In this document: piece by piece, positions 5,846-38,998 of the stretch
How the letters are laid out: each line of letters begins with the position of its first letter
Numbering within the stretch: the stretch's first letter is position 1
Source of the DNA: a virus
Lineage: Duplodnaviria; Caudoviricetes
Length of the DNA: 55,634 nucleotides
Strand: one strand, 5' to 3'
Virus record (IMG/VR): IMGVR_UViG_3300032092_000036
Span: 1-55,634 of that record
Program-made: the position numbers and the translations under genes
Notes under the pieces: generated by a model
What the model was told of the DNA's origin: nothing
Databases searched by the model: none
What the model saw: only the letters and a program-made list of their open reading frames with translations

Positions 5846-7846
5846 ATGACTACCCTCGTACTAAAGAACTTCTCTGGCGAACTGCCAAATACGCCGGACT
5901 ACAAGTTGCCGGACATTAACGCACAGCAAGCGCTGTACTGCGACTTTGCCCAGAACGATCTGCGTCCCTTACGTGGGGGCACACTAATTAAGACCATGGT
6001 TAATACGGTCAGGGGCATTTATACCGAAGAGGGCACTAACTTCTACACGTGGCCAATTGAAACGTTTGTTGCCAAGGGGCCCGTAAACAACGACACCTAC
6101 GGCCGCATGTATTTCATGAACGCCAATGGGTTCAAAGTAGCCCCGTATTCAGGCGCTGGAGCCACAGGCGGTGAACCTGCAACGTCTTATCTTGTGGGTG
6201 TTCCTGCTCCTACGACTGCTCCTACACTGGTCTTAAAGCAACGTGCGTCACTGCCAGACTATCCAAGTATTAGCGTTACGACCACTGTGTGGTACGAGCT
6301 CAACGGTAAGCGGTATCAAGAAGGCGCAATGACTTCGTTTGTCGTTGTGTCCCCATGGAAGAAGTACACGTTTACCCCACCTACTCGTACTCTTTATAAC
6401 CCCGGGCAAGAAGCTAGTTCAACGTTTGAATCATCGGGGGAAAACACAGTTACAGTTACCACTGAAGCAGTAGCTCCTACCGGAACTCCTCCTGATGCAA
6501 AGTTGACTGCACAGATCATCATTAAAGATACGACAAACGCCAACAAAGAAATCTTTAACGTAACGGTTTCTTCTGGTGCTACGACGCCAACGCGGAGCAA
6601 TGCGTTTCCCGGCGGTGTAGAAGTCATGCTGTCTACGGATGGCGCATTGACTTTTGAGTGGGGCGTTGTTGAAACTCGGGCTTACGTGTACACCATGGTA
6701 AACTCATACCTTGAGGAATCTGCCCCATCTCTTGCTAACGTAGTGTCAGTAACCTATTTAGATTATGTCGAGGTAACAACGACCGTACCTACATTTACAG
6801 GGTATTCCCCTAGATCAGCCACAAACATCTACCGCACGTTTGGCACAAATCCTACGTACTTCAAGATTACAACAACTAACTTAGGCGGCAACGTTTACAA
6901 AGACGAAACTTTTAAAGCTTCTGACATTGGTGTGGCGCTGCCATCCCTTGACTGGGACATTCCTGAGACTGGCATGACTGGCCTTGTGCCGATGCCTAAC
7001 GGATTCTTTGCGGCGTATAAAGGCAACATGCTGTATTTCAGCGAGCCGTTTAGACCCCATGCATGGCCTTATGCTATGTCGTTTCCAAACAACATAACGG
7101 GAATCTGCCCCGATGCTCAGTCGTTAGTCGTTACCACTAACACCGGGGCTCACATGGTTCTTGGAAGCTTGCCATCTAATATGTCTCAGCAAAAGTTGCC
7201 GCTCCCTCAAGCTGGTATTGCTCAAAGGCTCATGGTGAACTTAGAAGGCGCTGTTGCTTATGCATCCGCTGATGGTATTGTGCTGGTGCAAGGCTCACAA
7301 TCAACAATGACTTTGAGCCAGAAGTTCTACTCTCGAGAAGATTGGCGGGCTACGTTTGCTACGATTGCTGACGACGCTCGGTTTGGCTACACAGATGGCT
7401 ATCTTGTCATGGTCTCTTCTCAAGAAGCCAAGGGCATTATCATTCGCTTGGACGAAGCTGCCGGCACACTGACTCAGTTCAACGAGACGTTTGACTCGAT
7501 GTTCTATCTGCCGATTACAGATACTCTGTATTACTCCAAGGGTGCAGCTGTGTATCGTTTGCGCGATGGCGCGGCAGCTTACTACACGTTGGATTGGTGG
7601 AGCAAAGAGTTTACCTTGCCGAACTTTACAAACTTTGGAGCGTTTTTTATTCGTTGCACTGCGTCTACCGTTGTAAGCATCTATGTTGATGGCGCTCTGT
7701 GGACTACATTTACAGCTTCGGCTACTGGTTATTACCGCTTACCTGCGGGTAAACGTGCCGTGCGCTGGTCTGTCCGAGTTCAAACAATCGGTAAGATTGA
7801 AGAAATTGCCATGGCCGAATCTATGTCGGAGTTCCGTAGTGTCTAA
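5846..7846 (+). CDS. Tail tubular/nozzle-like structural protein
   Basis: 666 aa, beta-rich; LYFSEPFRPHAWP and VAYASADGIV motifs typical of podovirus tail proteins. Confidence 0.7.
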   Translation: MTTLVLKNFSGELPNTPDYKLPDINAQQALYCDFAQNDLRPLRGGTLIKTMVNTVRGIYTEEGTNFYTWPIETFVAKGPVNNDTYGRMYFMNANGFKVAPYSGAGATGGEPATSYLVGVPAPTTAPTLVLKQRASLPDYPSISVTTTVWYELNGKRYQEGAMTSFVVVSPWKKYTFTPPTRTLYNPGQEASSTFESSGENTVTVTTEAVAPTGTPPDAKLTAQIIIKDTTNANKEIFNVTVSSGATTPTRSNAFPGGVEVMLSTDGALTFEWGVVETRAYVYTMVNSYLEESAPSLANVVSVTYLDYVEVTTTVPTFTGYSPRSATNIYRTFGTNPTYFKITTTNLGGNVYKDETFKASDIGVALPSLDWDIPETGMTGLVPMPNGFFAAYKGNMLYFSEPFRPHAWPYAMSFPNNITGICPDAQSLVVTTNTGAHMVLGSLPSNMSQQKLPLPQAGIAQRLMVNLEGAVAYASADGIVLVQGSQSTMTLSQKFYSREDWRATFATIADDARFGYTDGYLVMVSSQEAKGIIIRLDEAAGTLTQFNETFDSMFYLPITDTLYYSKGAAVYRLRDGAAAYYTLDWWSKEFTLPNFTNFGAFFIRCTASTVVSIYVDGALWTTFTASATGYYRLPAGKRAVRWSVRVQTIGKIEEIAMAESMSEFRSV

Positions 7847-9470
7847 CTTTATTCCACTACCACCGACGTATGCTGTCTCTGACCCTCAGGTGAGGGCGGT
7901 GCTTGATGTTCTTACTCGCAACATGCAAGTGGTTATTGATGCCGGAGGCGGGACAACAACGAACACAGCCCTAACATCAGTTGGCGGTGCATCTACGTTT
8001 GGCAGTGGAAACAGCAGTACAAACATCACCAATCTTGCTCCTTCTTACACGCTAGATACGCTGACAGCAGATTTAAAACGTGGTGCGGCTGAAGTAATTA
8101 CTGGTGTAACTAACGGCACAACCGTTATGAAGCTAGAACCTGCTGGCCAATATGTTGTTTTTCAGCACAGAGATGCTAGTATTCTTGGAACGGTAGGCGC
8201 TTACGCAGGCACTATCCGAACCGGCCTAGGTATTACATCCACGGGTATCTTGGGCGGATACAACCGCCAATCTGATGGTGCGTGGCAGACTACGTTTGCC
8301 ATTGAGTCTTCTACGGGTAATTTAACCCTGCTGGGCACTCTCCGAGCTGCCTCAATTATTTCTGTAGATGCATACTTAGGTTCTACTTTAGTCAGTGATG
8401 TAGTCACAAACTCGGCAGCCGTTACAACCAAACTAAACAAAAGCGCAGCGGATATTCTTAGCGGAACAATTACTTTTACCAGTGCTGGCGGTTTTAAGAC
8501 AGGCACAATTGTTGTGGATGGGTCAGGCAATGCTACAGGTGCTGGTGTTGCAATTACAAGCAGAGGTATTGTTGGGCGAACTGACGCGGCCACGACGTTT
8601 ACGATTGATGCTACAACCGGTGCTGCCACGTTTAAGGGTGACATTACTGGTGCGTCTGGTAACTTTGCAGGAAATGTAACTGCGGGTAACGTTCTCTCAA
8701 CAGGAGCCGTATTAGGCACAAACTCTGGCACTAACTTCTGGCTTCGAGGCTCTGATGGGGCGGCATATTTTGGTGGAGAAACAACCGTCAAAGGTAGGTT
8801 TACTGTCAGCGGTTCTTTTGCTCAATCAGGCTACGGTGACATTGGCGCAGCTTTTACAACCAACGCAGGTGGTGCTTCTTTATACGCTACAAACAGCGGA
8901 ACCGGCACTTCTATTTATGCCAGCTCAGGCACTGGAACAGCAGCTACTTTATACAATACTACCAACGGTACTTTTGGTTTGCCAGCCGTATGGGCGCAAA
9001 ACAATGGAACAGGTCTTGCATTACGAGCTACATCTTCGGGGCAGACTTGCACCTTTACAAGTACAGGTGGCGGCTATGCGTTTATTGCATTTAGCAACGG
9101 AGCAACTGGAGCGACAGCTTTTGTTCAAGGTGACTTTGCATTAGGTTATAGTAATAGCCGAGGTGATCCATGGATTATGCGAGCTCCGTCGACTTCGGTT
9201 GCAGCTGCCGCCGCTTCGTATTTAAACAGTGACGGTACTTGGAAAGCAATAAGTGCGTTTGCCACAACTGCTTTGGGAACAGATGCGTATGCTGCAAATA
9301 GATTAAATGGTTCTGCTGGCTCAAATGTTATGAGGTTTGTTCAAGGGACAGTAAGTGGAGCGGCAACAGCAGGATTCTCAGGAACCAATAAACCCGGCAG
9401 CGCAAGTTCAAATACTTGGATGCAGATTACAATTGATTCAACAACTCTTTATATACCTGTCTGGACTTAA
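7839..9470 (+). CDS. Tail fibre/spike-like protein
   Basis: GTG at 7839 after GGAG; Gly/Thr/Ala-rich beta repeats (TFTIDATTGAATFKGDITGASGNF). Confidence 0.7.
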   Translation: MSNFIPLPPTYAVSDPQVRAVLDVLTRNMQVVIDAGGGTTTNTALTSVGGASTFGSGNSSTNITNLAPSYTLDTLTADLKRGAAEVITGVTNGTTVMKLEPAGQYVVFQHRDASILGTVGAYAGTIRTGLGITSTGILGGYNRQSDGAWQTTFAIESSTGNLTLLGTLRAASIISVDAYLGSTLVSDVVTNSAAVTTKLNKSAADILSGTITFTSAGGFKTGTIVVDGSGNATGAGVAITSRGIVGRTDAATTFTIDATTGAATFKGDITGASGNFAGNVTAGNVLSTGAVLGTNSGTNFWLRGSDGAAYFGGETTVKGRFTVSGSFAQSGYGDIGAAFTTNAGGASLYATNSGTGTSIYASSGTGTAATLYNTTNGTFGLPAVWAQNNGTGLALRATSSGQTCTFTSTGGGYAFIAFSNGATGATAFVQGDFALGYSNSRGDPWIMRAPSTSVAAAAASYLNSDGTWKAISAFATTALGTDAYAANRLNGSAGSNVMRFVQGTVSGAATAGFSGTNKPGSASSNTWMQITIDSTTLYIPVWT

Positions 9471-13284: not shown

Positions 13285-16200
13285 ATGCCAATCATTGAAG
13301 GGTTTACTCCTTCCGGTAGATCGCAGAATGAAGCGCCCCGTGCGCTTGAAGGTTTTACATCGGTCTACAAAGTTCCCATGCGCGGTGGCGACGATGCCTC
13401 TGGCATGCGAAATCCGTTACAGTTTTTGAACGACACCGTTGTCACCACGGTCAACTCCGGTCTTGGCATTATCAAAGGCGTCAGCGATTTTGTTTCGGTG
13501 GACAATCCGCTTTCAAAGGGTCTGGAATACATTATCAAAGAGGGTGAAGAAACTTACAGCCCTCAAGTTAAACAAGCGGAAGAAGAGCTTGGTCAAGCCA
13601 TGGATGAAGGCGGCTTTGAAGCCGTCAAAGGTGTTGGCAAATACGTTCTATCGTCTCCGGTGCAGACTGCGGCCAAGATTGTTGGTGGCATAGGCCCTAT
13701 CGGTAAAGGCATTCAGGCTAGCAGGTATGCAGCGCAGGCTTTAAAGTTTACCCCTCGCGGTCAAGGTATTGCCGGCGTTTCTGCCGGTGCTACGTTGGGT
13801 GGAGCCGCCGCTGGCGGTGATGCTGCTTCTGATGCTTATAGCCAAGTGATGAACAGCCCCAATGTACCGGAAGATCAGCGAGAGGCTATGGCTCGCCAAG
13901 CCGCACGTCAGGCATCAGTTGTTCCTGCTATCTTGGGCGGTTTGTCGGGTGCTACCGGCCTTGAAAGAATTATGTCTGGCGCTCGTGGCATTACCCGCGA
14001 AGGTGTTCGTCGCACTGCTGGTAAAGAGTTCCTTACAGAAGGTATTGAAGAAGGCGGCACAAAAGCTTCTGCCAATATTGCTGCAATGCAATATGATCCC
14101 ACGATTGACCCAATGCGCGGTGTTGTGGGTGCAACTACTCTTGGCGGCATCATGGGCGCTGGCGGTGGTGCTGGCGTTGCGTATCTAAACAACCGTGCTT
14201 ATGAGTCCAATATCCTTGGCACGGCTAATCCATCAGCTGACCAAAGTTTGATGCTCGGCATCAACAAGGGTGCGGGTCTGTCTACACAGGAATTGATTAA
14301 CGTCAAAACGGGTGTTACTCCTGCGGCTACTAAAGCCCAGCGCGCTGCACGCGAAGCAGATATTAAAGCAGCTCTAAGTGAGCCATCCGGTCGTTATGTC
14401 ACCGATGAGAATGGCATTGAGCGCGAACTCACCATGGGTGAAGCCGCATCCCTTGGCTATGAGACTCCTGCACTGGGAGCACTTACATCTGCTGAAGCGC
14501 CATCTGGTGAGACAACATCTCAAGTTATTGCTGACGACCTGCAAGCTGCGGCTTCTAAAGTTGGTATTAGTTTAGTAAGTAGGGGTAAACCCGTACAAAA
14601 ACGTATTGATGCGTTTACCAAAGCTGTTGATTTACTTGGCAGTGGTGCTATTGATAAAGCTACATTTGACCAGACCATAGAGCAGTTGAAGAAAAATCGA
14701 TATGCTGAGATCAACAAATCTTTTGCACAGATTGAAGCTGACTTCCAAGAAAAGCAGCGTCTAGCTAATCAGCCTAAATTCCAACGGGCTCCAAAACCAG
14801 AGGATCAAAATGTCAGCACTGATATTTCCGCTACAGGAGGACTTGCACCGAGCGTGGATGCTGGGGGCGTTGACGTATCAGGAGGCTTGGCAGCTACAGG
14901 ATCAGCTCTTAATGTCGGACCCAGCAGCGATGTGGGTTCCCGTGTCGCAGGAATTAGCCCCGCAGGTAATGAAACTTCACTTCTCGGAAATGTTACCGGT
15001 AAATCACCTACCACTTTAACACTACGCGCTGGTGCGCCAGCTTCGGGCATGGCTCAGACTTCTTTGGAAGATCAATTAGCCATTGGGGAATTAACAGGTA
15101 ACGCTGCAGAAGCGCAAGCACTGACTGAGGAAGAAGCCGGCCAGCGCATGGACGTGACCGACACTGATGAATCCAGAGCGCAAGACATTAACGCTATCTT
15201 AGACAAAGCGTTTGAGAATTCTGAGGACAAAGCTCGTGACATTGAAATTGCCAAGATGTACCTCGAGGTTATGAAAAATGCCCCGCAAGGCTTCAAACAG
15301 AAAATTCAAACTGCCATCGGCAAAGAGTTTGGTGTAAAAGCCGGCGCGGTTCGTAAGATTGGTCAAACGCCTGCTCTCGTAGACGCCGCTGTATCCATGG
15401 GTATGACAAGGCAGCAAGCCCTTGATCTTTTGGAGATCAGTGATACTTCTAAAAATAAAGTTAGCACGACTGCTGGAGAGCAAGCAGGCGGCCTTGAGAC
15501 TGTGGCTACAGAACTTGGCGTTGATTTCCAAGAAAATGATTCTATTGGTTTTGGATACGACGATACCCGCACATGGTCTCAGAGCGTAAAAGGCGCTGGC
15601 GATACTGTCAACGCGACAGACGAAGCCATGGCCAACGCTATCTACACCATCTCGGAAAAAATTAGAAGTGTTGATGCGCTCGCAGACAAACTTCCGGCCA
15701 TTGCGGGAACTCTGCGTGAAATGAAAGCCAAACTTGAAGAGACTTTGGTAAAAACTATGCAAAACGTTGCAGGTCGGCTAAAACCCGGCAGCAAACCAAC
15801 GCCTAGAAAAACAAAAGCAAAAGAGGTTGTGGAAGACGAGACTAAGCTTTTGACAGATGAACAGGTAGCCTTGAACAAACAGCAGGAAGCTCGTCAAGCC
15901 GCTCGTGCCGCTAGTCGTAAAGGTTTGGAAGTTGGCGACACAGTACAGAATCCAAAGTTAGGTACAGGCACGGTTCAAAGCTTTTCCGGTGACGGCGACG
16001 CTACCATGGCAAAGATTGCTTTTCAAAGCGGTCAAACAAAAGACTTGATGCTGTCTGCAGCAAAGTTAGAAAAGATTGCTAGTGCGCCTGTCACTGAGAA
16101 AGCTCCGATCGCCGAAACGACAACGCCTAAGAAAACTAAGGCGGGTAAAACAAAGGCGCAGGTCACAGGTCGTGACGTGTGGGAAAATCTACAGAAAGAC

Positions 16201-19200
16201 ACTCCCGGTCTTGGCGACTATGACGGTTTGTCTAAGAGGGAAAAAGACTATGTAGAAGAAGTGGCTGCCCGCACCAACGGCGACTTTACTTTGGTATCTG
16301 AGCCTTCCATGGAAGTGGTAATTGATAACCACATAAACGAAGAGCAGACGGAAGACATTTACACGGAAGACTTTGAAGCTGATGACGGCACAGCCCGCTA
16401 TATGCGATCAGCTACTAGCCAAGAGTGGAAAGACAACGACGGCAAAACATTTAAAACGCAGCCAACTACTCTTGCCAATTTAAGTAAGTATCCCGGTGTT
16501 CTTAAGGGGTTAAAGCATCTTCAAGAGGCTGGCCTTATTTCAACAGCGCAAAACATTGATACGTGGTTAATCACTGATGCCAAAGTTCCATGGACCGGTA
16601 TGCACATGTTGGTCGACGGTAAAGATACTATTATTTTTACTCAGGCCGCTCTTGATGATGTCAAACTATCATTTGTCACGCTGACCCACGAGATTGGCCA
16701 TAGTGTTGACGAAGCCGGCCTTGCAGGAACAGGCATCTACTCAAGTGCTCCAGAATTAAATTTAACATTTAAGAATGGAAACTTAAAAGCTATTGGCCCT
16801 GTAACCCGAGAATTGGTAAATCATTTTCTAAGCGATCAAGATTCTCCTCTATCTGAACAACTGCAGTATCCCCTTGTCGATAATGACGGGTTAACGGCAG
16901 ACAATATGCGTGAAGAACTTTTTGCGCAACTGTACATGTTCAGTTCGATGAAAATTGGTCGTCAATATTTACGTGACAACTTGCCGCTGACCGCGGCTTT
17001 TATGGAGAGAACACATGCAAAAATTAAAAAAACCAATGCCAGCGCCCAGCCAGCCGGTGAAGTACAAAGTGGTGAGTCAGGACAAGTTCAAGATAGGGCC
17101 CAAATTCGCGAAGTTTCTGGACGGCAACTACGAGCCAACAAAGAAAAAATCGTAAATTCTAAAGAGGCAAGAACGGTCTCTTCGGTAGTTTCAGAAACGC
17201 TAAACGCGCTGATGTTTACCGAAGACTTGTTTAAGAAGGCAGTCAAATCTGGCATCAAATCTGCCAAAGATATGATGAACATCTACCGCGAGCGCACAAA
17301 CCTCGAGGGTCAGATTCAGCGTGACGTTGAGCGTGTTGCTTCTTTGTACAACAAAATTCCTACTAACGAGCGCGGTACTGGTGACGCAAGTGCCAACAGG
17401 TTTGTCTACGACATGACCCGAGAAAAGAAGTGGGGCTTTAAACCTACGTGGCGTACTGGCCAAAGTGGGTCGGTTACGATTGATCCTGCCATGCGCAAAC
17501 GTTGGGATGGGTTGAGCCAAGAATCTCGTGACTGGACTGAGGCTGTGTTCGCCCACGGTGATGCCATGCTCAAGCTGAAAAAGCAGACATTGATGGACGC
17601 CACGAACTCTGAGTACGATTCTCTGATTAAGGGTGCGCAAGCCGCAGGCAATACAGCCAAAGTAGCTAAGTTTGAAGCTGCTAAAAAGTCTCAATTAAAG
17701 CAGTTTGCTCGCCTATTTGCAGTATCTGAGTTTGCCCCATACGCCCCCATGAAACGTTTTGGCGATCACGTTGTTGTGGCTAAATCGCAGAAATACATCA
17801 ATGCGTCTGAGGCTGAGCAAACTAAATTGCAAAACGATCCTGACCACTACCATGTAAGTTTTGCTGAGTCTAATTCATCAGCTTTTAAGTTAGAGAGTGA
17901 GTTGCGCGCCGAAGGCAGTTTTGCAAACGTAGAAACTTTTAAGAAAGAAGACGCCGGCAAAAATGGTATGTACGGTGGTTTGTTGCAAGCGTTTACTAAA
18001 TTGCGCGGTGATTTAGATTCTGAGTTAGCTAACGCGACTGATCCTGCAGAGCGTAATACTCTTGCTAAAGCCCGTGCCGTGGTAGCCGATTTGTATTTGG
18101 CATCTTTGGCTGAGAACAGTGCTCGTAAATCTGAGATGCGCCGCAAGGGTGTCGCGGGCGAGATTGATATGTTGCGCTCATTTGCCACACAGGGTCGTGC
18201 GGACGCGCAGTTCTTGGCTACTGCCAAGTACACCCCACAGATGACAGAAGCTATTAATAAGATGCGCCGTGAGGTTAAAGATGGCGGTTCTCGTTTAGAC
18301 AAGTCTCAATTGTTTAATGAGATCATGGCTCGCCACAATCAATCGTTGACGTACGATGCTTCTGTCTGGAGTGATATTGCTGCTAAGGCTAGCCGTGTTA
18401 CATCCGTTTGGTTCTTGGCTACCAGCCCCATGTATTATTTGCAGAACTTGACACAACCGCAAATGATATCAGTTCCATTTATGGCAGGTCGTCATAACTA
18501 TTTTAAAACTCAAACGGCTTTAATAAAAGCGTACACCCAGCTAGGCGGTTTAAATAAAAACAAAAAGATAGATGAGCCGTTTGACTTCAACAACGTGCCT
18601 GCGGATGTGCGCACGATGATTTCCACGTTGGTAGATCGTGGCCGTATTGATATTGGCATGGAGACCGAGCTTGGTCAATTCCAAGTTGAGGGCGAAAGCA
18701 AAGCTGCCCAAGGTATCAACAAAGTTGATCGTGTTCTGCGTTCTGTTGGTCAAAAAATGGAAGCGATTAATCGCGTATCAACTGCCATTGCTGCGTATCG
18801 CTTGGAGTTAGCTAAGACAGGCGACGTTAAGAAAGCTACTGAGTACGCCGATGAGGTGATCTCTCAGACTCACGGAGACTACACCCGCAACAATGCGCCT
18901 CGTGCGTTCAATACCAATGTGGGTAAAGTTGCACTGCAGTTCCGCAAGTTCCAGTTAATTCAGTTAACTCTGTTAACTAAGTTGGTGGCAAACTCTGTCA
19001 AAGGTGCAACTAAAGAAGAACGCGTGGCTGCTCGTACAGCATTAGCGTTTACCCTAGGTCATACTGCAGCACTGGCAGGACTTGTAGGTATGCCCGGATT
19101 TGCGGCCATTTCGTTTATTCTAAAAGGCTTGGCTGATATGTTTGGTGACGACGAAGAGCCTTACAACTTAGAAAAAGAATTGTATGAAGCCATGGTCTCG

Positions 19201-19908
19201 CAGTTTGGTGAAGATGCCGCGACGCTAATTACTCGCGGTGCGCCGGCTGCTGCAGGCGTGGACTTGTCAGGCAAGTTAGGTATGGGTAACACTTTGTCTG
19301 TCTTGCCGTTCACTGACTTTGAATTGTCTAAGGCTGGCGTGGCTGAGACAGGGTTTGCCGCGGTGTTTGGAGCTTCCGGTGCACTGGCACAACGTTTTGC
19401 CGAGGGTTTAAAGCAGATTTCCGGAGGTGAATACTATCGCGGGTTGGAAAAACTAGCACCTAAGGGTTTTTCAGATGCCATGAAAGCTGTTCGTGAAAAT
19501 GAGCAGGGCGTGACTCGTTTGAATGGTGATGTGCTTGTGCCGGCTGATGAGATTGCTGCATGGGAATCTACGGCTAAGTTCTTTGGTGTGCCAGTAACGT
19601 CTGACACCAAGCGCCGTTTCTTGACAGATATAAAGTTTGAAAACGAAAAAGCTTTTAAAGATAAAGCTGCCAAGCTGAAGAACCAATATACTAAGGCTCG
19701 CCGTGAGGGTGATGACACCACTGCCGTTCGTGAGAAGTGGGCAAAGCTTCAGGATGAGCGAGTCAGTGAAGGATTTAAACGTGAGCCATTGTCTAATCTG
19801 CTGCAAGCTCCACAGGCACAGGCTAAGCGCGAACGCGAGACAGCAGGCGGCATTCAGTTTAACAAACAGACACGTCGATTTACCGAAGAACTTGTAGGAG
19901 AACAGTGA
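13285..19908 (+). CDS. Giant polyvalent internal virion protein (HTH, Tudor-like, zincin HExxH, PLxRFG/LPD-type C-terminal region)
   Basis: 2207 aa; THEIGH...REELFAQ; YAPMKRFG; long helical C-terminus; position after other ejection genes. Confidence 0.8.
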   Translation: MPIIEGFTPSGRSQNEAPRALEGFTSVYKVPMRGGDDASGMRNPLQFLNDTVVTTVNSGLGIIKGVSDFVSVDNPLSKGLEYIIKEGEETYSPQVKQAEEELGQAMDEGGFEAVKGVGKYVLSSPVQTAAKIVGGIGPIGKGIQASRYAAQALKFTPRGQGIAGVSAGATLGGAAAGGDAASDAYSQVMNSPNVPEDQREAMARQAARQASVVPAILGGLSGATGLERIMSGARGITREGVRRTAGKEFLTEGIEEGGTKASANIAAMQYDPTIDPMRGVVGATTLGGIMGAGGGAGVAYLNNRAYESNILGTANPSADQSLMLGINKGAGLSTQELINVKTGVTPAATKAQRAAREADIKAALSEPSGRYVTDENGIERELTMGEAASLGYETPALGALTSAEAPSGETTSQVIADDLQAAASKVGISLVSRGKPVQKRIDAFTKAVDLLGSGAIDKATFDQTIEQLKKNRYAEINKSFAQIEADFQEKQRLANQPKFQRAPKPEDQNVSTDISATGGLAPSVDAGGVDVSGGLAATGSALNVGPSSDVGSRVAGISPAGNETSLLGNVTGKSPTTLTLRAGAPASGMAQTSLEDQLAIGELTGNAAEAQALTEEEAGQRMDVTDTDESRAQDINAILDKAFENSEDKARDIEIAKMYLEVMKNAPQGFKQKIQTAIGKEFGVKAGAVRKIGQTPALVDAAVSMGMTRQQALDLLEISDTSKNKVSTTAGEQAGGLETVATELGVDFQENDSIGFGYDDTRTWSQSVKGAGDTVNATDEAMANAIYTISEKIRSVDALADKLPAIAGTLREMKAKLEETLVKTMQNVAGRLKPGSKPTPRKTKAKEVVEDETKLLTDEQVALNKQQEARQAARAASRKGLEVGDTVQNPKLGTGTVQSFSGDGDATMAKIAFQSGQTKDLMLSAAKLEKIASAPVTEKAPIAETTTPKKTKAGKTKAQVTGRDVWENLQKDTPGLGDYDGLSKREKDYVEEVAARTNGDFTLVSEPSMEVVIDNHINEEQTEDIYTEDFEADDGTARYMRSATSQEWKDNDGKTFKTQPTTLANLSKYPGVLKGLKHLQEAGLISTAQNIDTWLITDAKVPWTGMHMLVDGKDTIIFTQAALDDVKLSFVTLTHEIGHSVDEAGLAGTGIYSSAPELNLTFKNGNLKAIGPVTRELVNHFLSDQDSPLSEQLQYPLVDNDGLTADNMREELFAQLYMFSSMKIGRQYLRDNLPLTAAFMERTHAKIKKTNASAQPAGEVQSGESGQVQDRAQIREVSGRQLRANKEKIVNSKEARTVSSVVSETLNALMFTEDLFKKAVKSGIKSAKDMMNIYRERTNLEGQIQRDVERVASLYNKIPTNERGTGDASANRFVYDMTREKKWGFKPTWRTGQSGSVTIDPAMRKRWDGLSQESRDWTEAVFAHGDAMLKLKKQTLMDATNSEYDSLIKGAQAAGNTAKVAKFEAAKKSQLKQFARLFAVSEFAPYAPMKRFGDHVVVAKSQKYINASEAEQTKLQNDPDHYHVSFAESNSSAFKLESELRAEGSFANVETFKKEDAGKNGMYGGLLQAFTKLRGDLDSELANATDPAERNTLAKARAVVADLYLASLAENSARKSEMRRKGVAGEIDMLRSFATQGRADAQFLATAKYTPQMTEAINKMRREVKDGGSRLDKSQLFNEIMARHNQSLTYDASVWSDIAAKASRVTSVWFLATSPMYYLQNLTQPQMISVPFMAGRHNYFKTQTALIKAYTQLGGLNKNKKIDEPFDFNNVPADVRTMISTLVDRGRIDIGMETELGQFQVEGESKAAQGINKVDRVLRSVGQKMEAINRVSTAIAAYRLELAKTGDVKKATEYADEVISQTHGDYTRNNAPRAFNTNVGKVALQFRKFQLIQLTLLTKLVANSVKGATKEERVAARTALAFTLGHTAALAGLVGMPGFAAISFILKGLADMFGDDEEPYNLEKELYEAMVSQFGEDAATLITRGAPAAAGVDLSGKLGMGNTLSVLPFTDFELSKAGVAETGFAAVFGASGALAQRFAEGLKQISGGEYYRGLEKLAPKGFSDAMKAVRENEQGVTRLNGDVLVPADEIAAWESTAKFFGVPVTSDTKRRFLTDIKFENEKAFKDKAAKLKNQYTKARREGDDTTAVREKWAKLQDERVSEGFKREPLSNLLQAPQAQAKRERETAGGIQFNKQTRRFTEELVGEQ
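14810..15019 (+). CDS. Candidate overprinted gene inside the giant gene (+1 frame)
   Basis: GAGG RBS before ATG; protein-like 69-aa sequence over a low-complexity linker of the host frame. Confidence 0.45.
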   Translation: MSALIFPLQEDLHRAWMLGALTYQEAWQLQDQLLMSDPAAMWVPVSQELAPQVMKLHFSEMLPVNHLPL

Positions 19909-35045: not shown

Positions 35046-35195
35046 TTAGTCGGTTTGCGATGCCTCGAGAAAGGTATCTACCGCTTCTTTTAGTTGGGTT
35101 CGTTGCTCTTGTTGTATGCCCGGCGCTAGCGCCTCACTGCATCGTTGCAAGAGATAGTTGTAGCTATCAATTAGTCCTTTGAGGTCTTCATTCAT
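35046..35195 (-). CDS. 49-aa protein (not in ORF track)
   Basis: MNEDLKGLIDSYNYLLQRCSEALAPG...; ATGA-coupled. Confidence 0.6.
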   Translation of the reverse strand: MNEDLKGLIDSYNYLLQRCSEALAPGIQQEQRTQLKEAVDTFLEASQTD

Positions 35196-36304
35196 ACAGT
35201 TTCTTCCATAGTAAAGTGGATTGTGTCGCCGTAAGGCGCTTCCACATCACTAGAAATACACCATACGACAGGGTAGGCAGGGCTGTTACTCTCACTGAAA
35301 CTGGTGTAACCATCTGTCAAACAGACGAATACCTCAGGCTCAATACCTTCCTTGGCAAGGAACTCGAAGCCGTATTCCATGTCAGTGCCACCGCCTGAGT
35401 AGAACTCTAACTTAAATTCGTCGCCACGTTCAAACACTTTGTGCAAGCGAACACCTGTATCTACATACAGTAAGTGTACACGCTCGGGGTTGCATTGCTC
35501 CAGAATCCGAGCCAAGTGACCTTGGTAGTACGACATCTCTTGCTGTGTAATAGAGCCGGATACGTCGATTTGGATGACAACCTCGCCCATCTCTTGGACA
35601 CGGCCTACGCTAGGCAAGTAGTCTTTGAAGCGACGGTTGGGGCGAGCCCATGAATAGTCTCCACGCACATAGCTTGTCATGTAACGCTCGAGTACGTCAT
35701 ACCATGGTGTGCCGGGGTCAATCAACTCAGCGATGATCTTAGCCAATGCACCGGGCAACTTACCTTGAGCCTTAGCTGCTTGCGCTGCTTGGGCTATCTC
35801 GACACGCGTTTCAACGTCAATGCGATCCGCCTCCTCGGGAGTGAGTGGTGAGCCTCGCTCGATAATGTCGTCGCCTGTACCGCCGGGACCGGGGCCATCA
35901 CCGTCATCCTCAGGCAAGTCGTTGTAGATAGCATCCGTTGTTCTGTCCTTGGAGCCGGGCATGTCCACGCATCCCTTGATTGGATCGCCGATGCCGGCAT
36001 CCTTGAGCATGTCATTGATCCACGCATCGCCTGCAATGTTCCAACGCTTAGGGGTACGAGAGCCACGACGCAAGGCATGCTGACCCATGATGTGGCCAAC
36101 CTCGTGAGCCAGTACGAACACGATCTCGTCGACGCTGAGTGTCTCGAACCACTTGGGGTTGATGTATATCTGACCGCGCTGATCGACTGCTGCAGTTGGG
36201 ATGCTCTCGTCTTCGATGAGTTGGCGCTTCATGAGCATGGATGCAAAGAAGGGGTGTTGTGTCACGATGGACACTTTAGCTTTGTCTAGTGTAGTGATTG
36301 CCAT
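35192..36304 (-). CDS. Metallopeptidase-VWA protein (DUF2201-like)
   Basis: AHEVGH zincin motif; MIDAS IDVSGS...GGGTD...LTDG. Confidence 0.88.
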   Translation of the reverse strand: MAITTLDKAKVSIVTQHPFFASMLMKRQLIEDESIPTAAVDQRGQIYINPKWFETLSVDEIVFVLAHEVGHIMGQHALRRGSRTPKRWNIAGDAWINDMLKDAGIGDPIKGCVDMPGSKDRTTDAIYNDLPEDDGDGPGPGGTGDDIIERGSPLTPEEADRIDVETRVEIAQAAQAAKAQGKLPGALAKIIAELIDPGTPWYDVLERYMTSYVRGDYSWARPNRRFKDYLPSVGRVQEMGEVVIQIDVSGSITQQEMSYYQGHLARILEQCNPERVHLLYVDTGVRLHKVFERGDEFKLEFYSGGGTDMEYGFEFLAKEGIEPEVFVCLTDGYTSFSESNSPAYPVVWCISSDVEAPYGDTIHFTMEETV

Positions 36305-36306
36305 GA

Positions 36307-36867
36307 TTAGTCTTTCCAGTTGTGTTGGTTGATACGGATGGGAGAATCTTGATTGAGCATGTTGGATACTTGCTTTGCATTGAATACATCGGATGGGCAA
36401 CGAGCTTTGACGAACAGATCACGCATCATCTGCACATACACTTTGTCGCTATGGAATCGAATGTGACTAGCTTCACCGGACAAAATAGCATCTATGTCTT
36501 GTTGCACTCTAGCCTTCGATCGTTGTATCCATGTGTGATGATCGTTGCCTGTCTGAGTTAGCATGTACGCTGCAAAATCAGCCTTGATCAAGGCACACGC
36601 TTCCTCACGAGCCTCTTCGCTAGTGAACTGCACATGCAAGCCCCAGTAGTCACCACGGATATAGGGTAAGTTGAACTGCTCACAAAATACCTTGGCAAGG
36701 CGCGATGCATGAGATGACCAACCACCGGTGATGTTGCCCGACTCAATTTGTTTCTGAATCGATCTACGCATCCTCGTGGTGATCTGCGTTGGGTTGAAGT
36801 AAATGTCGGCTGTTACACCGGCAGTCGTTAGCATCCTAGATGCCTGATAGAGATTTGGTCGCATCAT
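36307..36867 (-). CDS. Hypothetical protein
   Basis: 186 aa with AGGA RBS. Confidence 0.7.
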   Translation of the reverse strand: MMRPNLYQASRMLTTAGVTADIYFNPTQITTRMRRSIQKQIESGNITGGWSSHASRLAKVFCEQFNLPYIRGDYWGLHVQFTSEEAREEACALIKADFAAYMLTQTGNDHHTWIQRSKARVQQDIDAILSGEASHIRFHSDKVYVQMMRDLFVKARCPSDVFNAKQVSNMLNQDSPIRINQHNWKD

Positions 36868-37760: not shown

Positions 37761-38039
37761 TCATTGAGTTAGTAGGATGACTGCTTGTGCCCAGTCTTTG
37801 GCTTGTTGCACACTAGAAAAGAACTTCTGTTGCTTGCTTGCAATGATGCGAGCCCTCCACCTTCCAGTCCAGTAAGGCTCGGGTTCATCTTCGTCGTATT
37901 TAATAAAGGGTGAAATAACCGCCATGCGTTGCGGTATCTTTTGATCGGGGTCTTGCTTGTACAAGAGTGTGTGGAAATCTTCCGGCCTGTCCATCCACAT
38001 GTAGCTCACATCAGCACCTCTGCATTGGCAGTAGACCAT
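37761..38039 (-). CDS. Hypothetical protein (start uncertain)
   Basis: C-terminal FSSVQQAKDWAQAVI motif. Confidence 0.6.
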   Translation of the reverse strand: MVYCQCRGADVSYMWMDRPEDFHTLLYKQDPDQKIPQRMAVISPFIKYDEDEPEPYWTGRWRARIIASKQQKFFSSVQQAKDWAQAVILLTQ

Positions 38040-38998
38040 TCGATAAACGCTCGTGTCGATGTAATCTTAGGCGCTAGCTTGATGGAGTCCTTGATGGTCA
38101 TCACCGCAAACTCGGCAGGCAGTCGTGCCGTGTAAGACATGATCCGATCGATGTTGTCAACAGTTGCTTTACGTGCAAGCGCACCGGTAATCGCATACCG
38201 CACAGCAGGGTCCGTTGGAACCTGCGCACCCTTGGGGTCAAGCAAGAGAGCATCGATGTTAGGTAGTTGAGAGTAGATACGACGGAAGCCAACATACTCA
38301 GCAGCTGCACCCTCACCGACCTCACCGATCACATTCTCCAAGAACAACGATGCATCCAATGAATCGGGTACAAGGTTGACACGCTCCCATGAACGAGGCG
38401 TTGGGTTGGCAAAGCGATTGGCATCAAAGTCAGAGATCAGGCCGGGTCTGAATCGCAAGAACTGAATCAGGTCAGTCTTCCAATCATTGTCCAGTGCATA
38501 CGCGGTCAGGTCTTCGAGATTCTCTTGGAAGTCAAAGCGACGTGTACGATTGGCTAGCTTGGATGTGATGCGATTAGCACCTGACTTGTCCTCGGTACGA
38601 TTACCAGTGGCAATCTTGAACAGTTGATCTGACAGTTGCAAGTTACCGGCTCGGTTGTCATAGATTACACCGCACAATGCATTCTGCATGGGGATCGGAG
38701 CATCGGACAACTCTTCCAAGATCAGACCGACACGGCCAGTGCGTAGCTTGTAGAACTCTTCGGGCGGAACCCACCGAGTGAACTCGCCAGTGTTGTTAGG
38801 TGTACCGAGTACATCCACAGGGTCACGCAATGAAGCCGTGAACTCCACGACATGATCTAGGTTAAGCTCTCGCATGATCTCACGAGCACAAGCTGACTTG
38901 CCACCACCGGGAGCACCGAGGATGAATGGCACGATCTTGTTACCCTGAGGGGCTTTGAACTGCTCGACAACAGATTTCTTGATGTTTGAATAACGCAT
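38006..38998 (-). CDS. MoxR-like AAA+ ATPase
   Basis: GAPGGGKS, LILEEL, ATGNR, LANR, TPRSW. Confidence 0.9.
   Translation of the reverse strand: MRYSNIKKSVVEQFKAPQGNKIVPFILGAPGGGKSACAREIMRELNLDHVVEFTASLRDPVDVLGTPNNTGEFTRWVPPEEFYKLRTGRVGLILEELSDAPIPMQNALCGVIYDNRAGNLQLSDQLFKIATGNRTEDKSGANRITSKLANRTRRFDFQENLEDLTAYALDNDWKTDLIQFLRFRPGLISDFDANRFANPTPRSWERVNLVPDSLDASLFLENVIGEVGEGAAAEYVGFRRIYSQLPNIDALLLDPKGAQVPTDPAVRYAITGALARKATVDNIDRIMSYTARLPAEFAVMTIKDSIKLAPKITSTRAFIEWSTANAEVLM

Follow-up and report, generated by a model that had tools for sequence, protein, structure and literature searches.

The window, i.e. the entire analysed stretch of 55,634 nt, is the 55.6-kb genome of an uncultured podovirus-like phage and is ~95% complete. 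The last large gene of its virion/ejection block encodes a polyvalent PLxRFG protein of 2207 aa, and the neighbouring genes encode a spanin, an endolysin, an internal virion protein, and a virion structural protein. No phage RNA polymerase (RNAP) was recognised among the phage's genes. The helicase of the phage is of the SNF2 type, and an SF1 helicase is not present. tRNAs, which were looked for as a clue to the host, were not found in the genome. When 185,579 species genomes were searched, the sole match was to a 60-kb contig from a Phycisphaerales MAG, and this contig probably represents a binned phage; the phage itself is best explained as infecting a Gram-negative host.

Features of the gene for the 2207-aa protein; positions refer to the window, and residues to the encoded protein.
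Feature	Residues	Position (nt)	Strand	Basis
Polyvalent PLxRFG protein gene with Tudor cassette	1-2207	13285..19908	+	ORF; final large gene in the virion/ejection block
Weak sigma-70 region-4.2-like helix-turn-helix, ~160 aa upstream of the Tudor	671-718	15295..15438	+	profile
Left copy of imperfect 22-nt direct repeat bracketing the cassette	encodes T-P-R-K-T-K-A	15797..15818	+	repeat search
Optional cassette of 93 aa: short helix, Tudor barrel, start of downstream linker	847-939	15823..16101	+	in-frame indel versus sisters
PcrA/UvrD-type Tudor core	880-931 (Pfam match 883-930)	15922..16077	+	profile, alignment, model
Key positions of the Tudor	N889; L892; K919; L921	15949-15951; 15958-15960; 16039-16041; 16045-16047	+	alignment
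Right copy of 22-nt direct repeat	encodes T-P-K-K-T-K-A	16121..16142	+	repeat search
Zincin-like metallopeptidase (MPTase) domain, H1135-E-x-x-H1139 and E1176	~1045-1254	16417..17046	+	alignment, AF2
PLxRFG 'tail-700' C-terminal domain	1485-2196	17737..19872	+	NF032893

The C-terminal domain (residues 1485-2196) was matched by the NCBIfam model NF032893 with 311.8 bits (cut-off 100). The PHROG family 'DarB-like antirestriction' also matches the C-terminal part, and a hydrophobic stretch lies within the PLxRFG tail at residues 1919-1949. A tblastn search identified 69 phage records that match the tail part only, with less than 60% identity (24-28% among the 30 listed), and a megablast of the complete gene against 50,697 phage records did not yield a match. 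The H, E, H, and E residues of the MPTase domain are invariant in 16 aligned relatives. Its AF2 model has a pLDDT of 69.4; the predicted fold matches zincin peptidases only weakly (best E 0.015), and none of the PDB folds was matched at E <= 0.001. The Pfam and NCBIfam profiles did not find a helicase domain in the 2207-aa protein, and a Pfam search with four further pieces of it returned only one FCH match, which is below the threshold. As suggested by the position of the gene in the structural/ejection block, the protein is probably packaged in the virion and ejected together with the DNA. For polyvalent proteins, injection and processing by zincin peptidases have been predicted (PMC5512222).

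The initial annotation had described a segment of 52 residues in this protein as a UvrD/PcrA C-terminal Tudor domain that was captured by a phage. Translation of the plus strand gives exactly the residues quoted, GLEVGDTVQNPKLGTGTVQSFSGDGDATMAKIAFQSGQTKDLMLSAAKLEKI, and the minus strand of the same segment is interrupted by stops. The Pfam family PF21196 (PcrA_UvrD_tudor) was matched over positions 1-48 of 48. The scores were 29.5 bits for the excised Tudor peptide (E 6.9e-7, cut-off 23.9), 26.6 bits for a 127-aa piece around the Tudor, 28.1 bits in a six-frame search of the phage record (E 1.2e-7), and 21.4 bits for the whole 2207-aa protein (E 2.3e-4), i.e. below the cut-off. No other Pfam family matched the segment with an E value better than 0.13, and the Mfd-RID, CarD_CdnL_TRCF, and SH3/KOW families were not found on it at E <= 10. 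The equivalog models for UvrD and PcrA align with the 127-aa piece over their final ~70 positions. Among PDB sequences, eight of the nine matches of the single Tudor sequence are UvrD/PcrA, and for a family profile built from 12 phage Tudors all nine matched chains are UvrD/PcrA, the best being D. radiodurans UvrD (4c2t, E 2.8e-9).

The AF2 model of the Tudor has five strands, with a pLDDT of 76.9 overall and of 85-90 in the core, and its top eight Foldseek matches are the Tudors of UvrD, PcrA, and UvrD1 (rmsd 1.0-2.0 Å). The model superposes on 7egs_B, the UvrD CTD bound to the lobe of E. coli RNAP, with an rmsd of 1.0 Å and a TMt of 0.89, and it also superposes on the UvrD CTD with UvrB (7egt_B). 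For this model, the Foldseek E value is 1.8e-4 for UvrD versus 0.03 for Mfd and >= 0.1 for CarD/CdnL; a fold search of BFVD gave 0 matches at E <= 0.001. The PDB profile matches and the top Foldseek matches are thus all of the UvrD/PcrA type, which specifies the segment as a Tudor of this type and not as a generic SH3/KOW domain. Taken together, homology, predicted fold, and residue pattern show this segment to be a real copy, in re-tuned form, of the Tudor domain at the C terminus of UvrD/PcrA helicases.

The re-tuning concerns the partner-binding face. The consensus pattern on which the annotation was based fits overall, with the exception of two positions: when aligned with 5DMA and E. coli UvrD, the phage Tudor has Asn889 in place of the conserved His and Leu892 in place of the conserved Phe/Trp. 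The Lys of the TKDL motif, which had been singled out for mutation, aligns with PcrA K712 and UvrD K708. For PcrA, single Ala substitutions of H681, W684, K712, and L714 each abolished the RNAP pull-down (PMC5397179), and in a docking model the conserved Lys pairs with the Glu of a TGE hairpin (PMC8318588). The Lys and Leu of this face (K919 and L921 here) are kept in 51 of 51 phage segments. The positions of PcrA H681 and W684 (UvrD H678 and F681) are Asn and Leu in all 51, and the second aromatic residue of the UvrD/PcrA Tudor is absent from all of them. For comparison, we analysed 38 Tudor segments from the 32 nearest non-polyvalent proteins. His is found in 33 of these and F/W/Y in 34, while Asn occupies the His position in none and Leu the aromatic position in one, so that the binding face of the phage segments has been systematically changed. 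All four residues of the 'aromatic cage' of E. coli UvrD (H678, F681, W709, Y714) are non-aromatic in the phage Tudor, and the phage barrels, whose net charges range from -2 to +2, contain no more than 2-3 aromatic/His residues each. A near-neutral barrel without an aromatic cage favours protein binding over DNA binding.

The Tudor resides in a cassette that is optional. In an alignment of 19 close relatives, three contain the cassette and 16 have one uninterrupted gap, and the 21 closest full-length sisters all lack it. Among the 120 nearest relatives, chosen by the tail, 16 have the cassette and 104 do not; its distribution on the tail tree is patchy, with nine changes over 110 rows. The capture postulated in the annotation can thus be specified as the acquisition of an in-frame cassette within the 2207-aa ORF. 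The GC content of the cassette (0.48) is equal to that of the gene. The two copies of the bracketing repeat are identical at 18 of 22 bases, a value attained in 2 of 300 triplet shuffles, and are spaced 324 nt (108 codons) apart. The claim that flexible linkers surround the Tudor also holds: the flanks are rich in Lys, Pro, Thr, and Ala, and in the model the C-terminal flank has a pLDDT < 50 and the N-terminal flank is predicted to be a lone helix. The optional and patchy occurrence fits an accessory host-interaction module better than an essential structural part.

Half of the invariant columns of 16 full-length proteins (27 of 54) lie in residues 878-930, and a 50-aa conservation score is 0.84 for the Tudor window versus 0.69 for the next best one, but these values are biased as the alignment was gathered through the Tudor region itself. 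The Tudor is therefore not described here as the most conserved part of the protein without qualification, the set gathered by the tail being mostly devoid of the cassette. Shuffling of cassettes between phages could mimic purifying selection.

With respect to the origin of the Tudor, its nearest non-polyvalent relatives are small proteins and UvrD fragments that are 36-49% identical, and no donor lineage can be named from these matches. Derivation from a phage UvrD-like helicase was also considered; since the helicase of the present genome is of the SNF2 type, this idea was rejected here. A tblastn search with a 77-aa Tudor piece retrieved only four of the 50,697 phage records, all with E >= 4e-3; two are annotated as DNA helicase II in bacterial contigs, and two are short and unannotated and have the same 34.6% match. 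At this sensitivity, the Tudor is thus found in no catalogued phage. It is also absent from the 69 GenBank phage records that have the same tail.

The known PcrA, UvrD, and UvrD1 Tudors (5DMA, 6YI2, 7EGS, 7EGT, 9DQS, 4C2T) share the five-stranded barrel, the Gly-rich turns, and the Lys and Leu residues with the phage copy, and in UvrD as in the phage protein a flexible linker is N-terminal to the domain. In contrast, they form the ends of helicases, whereas the phage copy is internal to a 2207-aa protein and has a near-neutral surface, with Asn in place of His and Leu in place of the aromatic residue. The remainder of the protein resembles the polyvalent proteins of phages and conjugative elements described by Iyer et al. 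2017 (PMC5512222) and the PLxRFG/'DarB-like' giants known from Lastavirus and from Pseudomonas, Rhizobium, Erwinia, and Vibrio phages. The shared features are a giant multidomain protein encoded in the virion block, a zincin-like HExxH peptidase, a PLxRFG tail-700, and variable central cassettes, which in relatives comprise LPD23, ParB_N, or sigma-r4. In the main text of PMC5512222, 'Tudor' and 'PcrA' occur 0 times, and UvrD is mentioned only as whole helicases of actinomycete plasmids. The Tudor-like domains of Mfd (RID), CarD/CdnL, and RapA are also beta-barrels of small size, through which a factor is docked on RNAP beta (PMC5397179), but they have no sequence match to the phage Tudor and bind the beta1 region instead of SI1 (PMC5397179, PMC8318588). 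T4 Alt ADP-ribosyltransferase and N4 virion RNAP are virion-borne proteins that meet the host transcription machinery upon entry (PMC5512222); in contrast to the phage Tudor, which is predicted to be a non-catalytic docking module, they are enzymes, and there is no homology.

The results suggest, without proving it, that by means of the cassette the phage captures a host protein as infection begins. The best reading, which we hold tentatively and at somewhat less than an even chance, is that the cassette is an optional docking module, by which the ejected protein is anchored to a β-hairpin motif of the host's RNAP β and/or UvrB. The Tudor would clamp an exposed host β-hairpin of the kind called 'helicase interaction motif' ([VIL]-D-x-x-T-G-E) via the face with Lys919 and Leu921, with RNAP beta (lobe/SI1) as the first and UvrB as the second candidate partner. 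By docking, the ejected protein, or a piece of it cut out by its own zincin peptidase, would be held together with the neighbouring modules on a host machine at the site where the DNA enters the cell. The purpose might be to direct host RNAP to the genome as it comes in; recruitment of RNAP had also been put forward in the annotation, and it is proposed because a phage RNAP was not found. The helicase interaction motif, in its strict and loose forms, does not occur in the six frames of the phage, and a motif-type ligand would therefore be host-encoded. Co-folding of the Tudor with residues 140-460 of RPOB_ECOLI, a stand-in for the RpoB of the phage host, resulted in a score of 0.36 (0.34, 0.36, and 0.38 in the individual runs) versus 0.00 for the best of three controls. 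This support is of the weak class, and the pass may derive from the like complex 7EGS, which is already solved. The contact agreement of the runs was at least 100% and the partner pLDDT at least 79. Of 80 solved complexes, 58 attained the co-folding mark, as did 2 of 110 mismatched pairs; scores <= 0.60 at the mark were obtained for only 7 of the 80 solved complexes and for both passing mismatches.

Alternatively, the Tudor could still be a docking module, the Asn/Leu face of which binds a partner other than RNAP beta or UvrB, e.g. a host factor that acts in defence or repair, or a protein of the phage or its virion. We regard this as possible, though not likely. The invariant Asn and Leu in the phage segments and their rarity in the cellular ones, the loss of the aromatic cage, and the weak RpoB co-fold are all compatible with such a retargeting. 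However, the Lys/Leu pair that is central to the known interface is kept throughout, the phage does not encode the helicase interaction motif, Asn and Leu can be viewed as chemically conservative swaps for His and Phe/Trp, and no result indicates another partner. The annotation had offered competition with UvrD as a second option. In this case, the module would be a decoy at the RNAP and UvrB docking sites, and UvrD-dependent repair, R-loop removal, or anti-recombination would be dampened during infection. The fold and the Lys/Leu face match the UvrD CTD, RNAP and UvrB contend for one CTD surface in B. subtilis (PMC8318588), and a protein from a gene in the late/structural block could build up late. 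For an ejected low-copy protein this option is less likely, and overall it appears to be improbable: few copies per particle, compared with cellular RNAP, would make early stoichiometric competition implausible, the helicase core of UvrD also contacts RNAP (PMC8318588), and the altered His and aromatic positions speak against simple mimicry.

Two further explanations dispense with a host protein partner. The module could bind nucleic acids, i.e. the phage DNA end or RNA, or have a role inside the virion, packing on the capsid, the portal, or the DNA. The E. coli UvrD CTD binds ss/dsDNA weakly, and the protein is probably a virion component; nevertheless, we consider this explanation very improbable, as the UvrD CTD depends on aromatic stacking and a basic surface for DNA binding (bioRxiv 10.1101/2020.07.06.189035), which contrasts with the composition of the phage barrels, and an essential structural role sits badly with the lack of the cassette in most relatives. 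The least credible of the explanations is that the cassette is a passenger, i.e. neutral sequence without a separate function, shuffled within a linker that is prone to recombination. Its patchy spread, the clean indel, and the flanking repeats would be expected of a passenger, but the 27 invariant positions are found in proteins with an overall identity of just 20-36% (74% for one), and frame and fold are preserved in 51 segments.

A literature search did not retrieve any account of a phage polyvalent or virion protein with a UvrD/PcrA Tudor. If the cassette does bind RNAP or UvrB, this would be the first phage use of the UvrD/PcrA docking domain on a virion-delivered protein, and polyvalent proteins would have a non-enzymatic 'address label' added to their repertoire. 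Such binding would also provide a compact handle (93 aa; K919/L921 versus N889/L892) on how ejected proteins locate host machines. The near-identical sister phages with and without the cassette represent a natural comparison series, and the changes from His to Asn and from the aromatic residue to Leu could reveal determinants of partner specificity in the Tudor family. Should the partner be a different one, the locus would still be a clean case of in-frame exchange of a domain cassette in phage giant proteins.

Upstream of the cassette, residues 671-718 may resemble sigma region 4.2, which we treat as a sequence-based lead only. The best PDB matches of a profile of this helix-turn-helix are region 4 of RpoH and SigA (E ~0.01). 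Pfam Sigma70_r4 matches five of the eight members of the profile at E <= 1 (best 1.1e-3), the copy of this phage not being one of them, and the sigma-r4-like helix-turn-helix is also found in relatives without the Tudor. A more elaborate and rather unlikely version of the docking model, a 'jump-starter', would place the Tudor on the RNAP beta lobe, the sigma-r4-like helix-turn-helix on the flap or promoter, and the PLxRFG tail at the ejection channel. Host RNAP would be loaded on the entering genome end and would help to pull the DNA in, standing in for the RNAP, virion- or phage-encoded, that N4- and T7-type phages have; the PLxRFG tail would be membrane-associated, and the optional cassette would tune the system to particular hosts.

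The initial annotation had proposed that a C-terminal Tudor domain of the UvrD/PcrA type was captured by a phage protein. The 52 residues quoted there are the exact translation of 15922-16077 (+), i.e. aa 880-931 of a giant protein of 2207 aa (ORF 13285-19908, +); the minus strand of the segment contains stops. The profile PF21196 (PcrA_UvrD_tudor) aligns over its full length (positions 1-48 of 48) and gives 29.5 bits (E 6.9e-7) for the excised peptide, above the gathering score of 23.9, so that the profile search bears out the proposal. The values are 26.6 bits for a 127-aa piece, 28.1 bits (E 1.2e-7) in a six-frame search of the record, and 21.4 bits, under the cut-off, for the whole protein. 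In NCBIfam, the DNA helicase II and PcrA models align with the 127-aa piece through their final ~70 positions, a span that takes in part of the linker preceding the barrel.

Comparison with known structures led to the same family. The single Tudor sequence has nine distinct matches at E <= 1 among all PDB chains, i.e. eight to UvrD, PcrA or UvrD1 and a ninth (E 0.4) to an unrelated protein. With A2, a profile of 12 phage Tudor copies, all nine matched chains are UvrD or PcrA, the best being D. radiodurans UvrD (4c2t, E 2.8e-9) and the E. coli UvrD CTD (~8e-6). The AF2 model built from A2 (mean pLDDT 76.9, core 85-90) consists of a short helix followed by five strands. The top eight Foldseek matches of this predicted fold in the PDB are all UvrD, PcrA or UvrD1 Tudors (rmsd 1.0-2.0 Å; ranks 1-5 at E <= 0.001, ranks 6-8 at E 1.7e-3 to 9.2e-3), including the UvrD CTD solved together with the lobe of E. 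coli RNAP (7egs_B, rmsd 1.0 Å, TMt 0.89) and the T. thermophilus UvrD CTD with UvrB (7egt_B). Mfd (E 0.03) and CarD/CdnL (E >= 0.1) match more weakly, and therefore the likeness is not merely that of a generic SH3/KOW barrel.

In PcrA, the exchanges H681A, W684A, K712A, and L714A are each reported to cut the RNAP pull-down severely (PMC5397179). The PcrA/UvrD CTD binds a beta-hairpin of the form [VIL]-D-x-x-T-G-E-[VIL]-[VILT] in RpoB SI1 and UvrB, and in a docking model a CTD Lys pairs with the hairpin Glu (PMC8318588). Alignment to 5DMA and E. coli UvrD yields N889, L892, K919, and L921 as the phage equivalents of the four PcrA residues, and N, L, K, and L occupy exactly these positions in 51 of 51 phage segments (the fragment P0006 was left out). 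For comparison, 38 Tudor segments from the 32 nearest non-polyvalent proteins were used (see table). The “aromatic cage” of E. coli UvrD (H678, F681, W709, Y714), which has been implicated in weak DNA binding (bioRxiv 10.1101/2020.07.06.189035), is N/L/D/A in the phage Tudor, and the phage barrels have net charges of −2 to +2 and just 2-3 aromatic or His residues. Because N and L replace the His and the aromatic residue, K and L stay, and cage and charge differ, the phage clade is a distinct Tudor subtype, with half of the tested binding face kept and half replaced; the features linked to DNA binding are lost.

Features of the giant protein and its gene, and conservation at PcrA positions in the comparison set
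Feature	Position	Observation
PLxRFG “tail-700” domain	aa 1485-2196, C-terminal third	NF032893, 311.8 bits (cut-off 100)
HExxH motif	H1135-E-x-x-H1139 + E1176, ~245 residues C-terminal to Tudor	invariant in 16 aligned relatives
Weak sigma-70 region-4.2-like helix-turn-helix	15295-15438 (+), aa 671-718	~160 residues upstream of Tudor
Imperfect 22-nt direct repeat	15797-15818 and 16121-16142 (+)	18/22 identical, brackets cassette
H681	PcrA numbering	His kept in 33/38 non-polyvalent segments
W684	PcrA numbering	F/W/Y kept in 34/38 non-polyvalent segments; Leu once
K712	PcrA numbering	Lys kept in 30/38 non-polyvalent segments
L714	PcrA numbering	Leu kept in 30/38 non-polyvalent segments
F718	PcrA numbering	F/W/Y kept in 26/38 non-polyvalent segments

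A word-based search with aa 850-960 identified 52 large proteins (1309-3094 aa, query counted) that bear the Tudor module. A HMMER scan of 1.84 billion representatives retrieved 47 proteins at E <= 1e-3, of which 13 reach E <= 1e-10; each of these 13, and likewise P0063 (E 1.8e-10), is a giant protein or part of one, and a 387-aa protein with three Tudor copies (P0062, E 1.3e-10) ranks between them. The other matches comprise small Tudor-only proteins, C-terminal fragments of UvrD, and a low-complexity false match (P0064). P0065, P0067, P0073, P0075, P0076, and P0082 are stand-alone UvrD-type Tudor proteins of 100-155 aa with acidic or Lys-rich tails and are of the “HPKWGxGTV” type; a further tandem arrangement, with four copies, is found in P0069. 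The module is present on 26 IMG/VR contigs, 25 of which have the word NPKLGTG (script scan; the exception is L004). The sole match among 185,579 species genomes is L002, a 60,447-bp contig of a Phycisphaerales MAG that holds a 2611-aa Tudor-bearing giant ORF and is similar in size to these phage genomes; probably a contig of phage origin ended up in the MAG bin, which makes it unreliable as host evidence. In catalogued phage records the module was not found at the sensitivity of tblastn, and the BFVD fold search gave no match at E <= 0.001.

An unbiased set of relatives was obtained with the PLxRFG tail as query, and the best 120 of 831 relatives at E <= 1e-10 were used. The Tudor is present in 16 of these 120, one of them (P0006) being a fragment that retains just the final 33 barrel residues. 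The 21 closest full-length Tudor-less sisters among the best 120 of 831 have tails that are 80-87% identical to that of the query. When 19 close relatives were aligned, three had the 93-residue cassette (aa 847-939) and 16 showed one unbroken gap in its place, at a site within a Lys/Pro/Thr-rich linker with well-aligned flanks on both sides, in agreement with the flexible linkers noted initially. In a FastTree phylogeny of the tails, Tudor presence changes 9 times over 110 rows, i.e. with 10 Tudor-less rows <1900 aa dropped as possible fragments, and 12 times over all 120 rows. At least seven changes are forced by well-supported branches. The GC content of the cassette equals that of the gene (0.48). 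The copies of the 22-nt repeat lie exactly 108 codons apart and each encodes T-P-x-K-T-K-A; their identity was attained in 2 of 300 triplet shuffles, and the repeat may be a recombination scar or a mere duplicated linker.

Sixteen full-length Tudor-bearing proteins have overall identities to the query of 20-36%, with one at 74%. They share 54 invariant columns, 27 of which lie within aa 878-930, and a 50-residue sliding window reaches 0.84 at the Tudor versus 0.69 at the next best position, a contrast that is inflated because the set was gathered through the Tudor itself. Cassette exchange between phages could contribute to this conservation. In the exhaustive scan, no giant protein with a diverged copy fell in the range between the tight clade (at least 51% identity) and the cellular forms.

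The window spans an entire IMG/VR virus record (55,634 bp), whose completeness is estimated at 95%. PHROGs labels the tail of the carrier “DarB-like antirestriction”, and in tblastn the tail alone was matched, in 69 GenBank phage records (coverage <= 34% and identity <60% in all, 24-28% in the 30 listed), including Klebsiella Lastavirus, Pseudomonas, Rhizobium, Erwinia, and Vibrio phages. Nearby plus-strand genes encode a minor tail protein, spanin, endolysin, internal virion protein, and virion structural protein, with terminase, portal, and major head protein farther along; DNA polymerase, a SNF2-type helicase, a DUF927 primase-helicase, and exonuclease are on the minus strand. The spanin suggests that the host is Gram-negative, and annotation scans of the window recognised no phage RNA polymerase. 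Polyvalent proteins are predicted to be injected together with DNA (PMC5512222); position and family indicate that the giant protein is one of this kind, and we infer that it is packaged and ejected. The model of aa 945-1320 (pLDDT 69.4) weakly resembles zincin peptidases (best E 0.015, no such match at E <= 0.001), the same distant likeness as described for MPTase domains of polyvalent proteins (Iyer et al., PMC5512222). No HExxH motif was found in 7 of the 26 Tudor-bearing giant ORFs (L012, L014, L018, L020, L022, L023, and L025), and it lies ~230 to 1040 residues from the Tudor in the others; some of the ORFs are truncated at the end of their contig. Tudor and peptidase are thus not constantly paired.

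The reading that best fits these facts is that the Tudor would serve as an accessory module that docks on a host protein, because it is optional, tightly conserved where present, linker-flanked, and non-catalytic, keeps the Lys/Leu face, and lacks the DNA-binding features, and because its carrier is probably ejected and the hairpin motif is not phage-encoded (none was found in a six-frame motif search of the window). By homology, the first candidate targets would be RNAP beta and UvrB, through their TGE hairpins. Co-folding of A2 with residues 140-460 of RPOB_ECOLI, with E. coli as stand-in host, lent this weak support, with a score of 0.36 (runs 0.34, 0.36, and 0.38; best of three controls 0.00), with agreement in 100% of contacts and partner pLDDT >= 79. 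Of 80 solved complexes 58 attain the co-fold mark, and of 110 mismatched pairs 2 do so; at scores <= 0.60 it is attained by only 7 of the 80 and by both of these mismatches. As the like complex 7EGS is already solved, the co-fold shows likeness rather than binding. Both recruitment of RNAP and competition with host UvrD had been suggested initially. We favour tethering or localising over competition, since an ejected protein would have a low copy number compared with RNAP. The zincin domain may release a Tudor-bearing fragment, to judge from the zincin processing predicted for polyvalent proteins (PMC5512222).

The helix-turn-helix has the conserved signature “FG(I/V)xxxxVR(K/Q)IGN”, and the best PDB matches of its profile are RpoH/SigA region 4 (E ~0.01). 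Pfam Sigma70_r4 matches five of eight relatives at E <= 1, the window's own copy not among them. The motif is also present in the alignment consensus of Tudor-less relatives, and two Tudor-less relatives have precomputed PF04545 matches. A transcription-directed role would fit with it, but this is no more than a lead.

The main text of Iyer et al. 2017 (PMC5512222) has no Tudor and no PcrA, and UvrD solely as whole helicases. No description was found in the literature on polyvalent/PLxRFG proteins, the UvrD Tudor/PF21196, or phage virion Tudor and RNA polymerase. New here, going by these searches, is a re-tuned UvrD/PcrA-type Tudor within a phage polyvalent protein, i.e. a known docking domain, putatively with that role, in a changed form and on a new carrier.

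Elsewhere in the window, the internal-virion-protein ORF (5846-7846, +) overlaps the next ORF (595 aa, 7683-9470, +) by 164 nt as listed; the latter probably begins further downstream than listed, or a frameshift links both. At 35192-36400 (−) and 38006-38998 (−), with an ATPase gene near, a 402-aa protein is labelled “HNH endonuclease” by PHROG, which conflicts with the Pfam assignments, a DUF2201_N putative metallopeptidase (E 4.9e-50) and a VWA-like DUF2201 domain.
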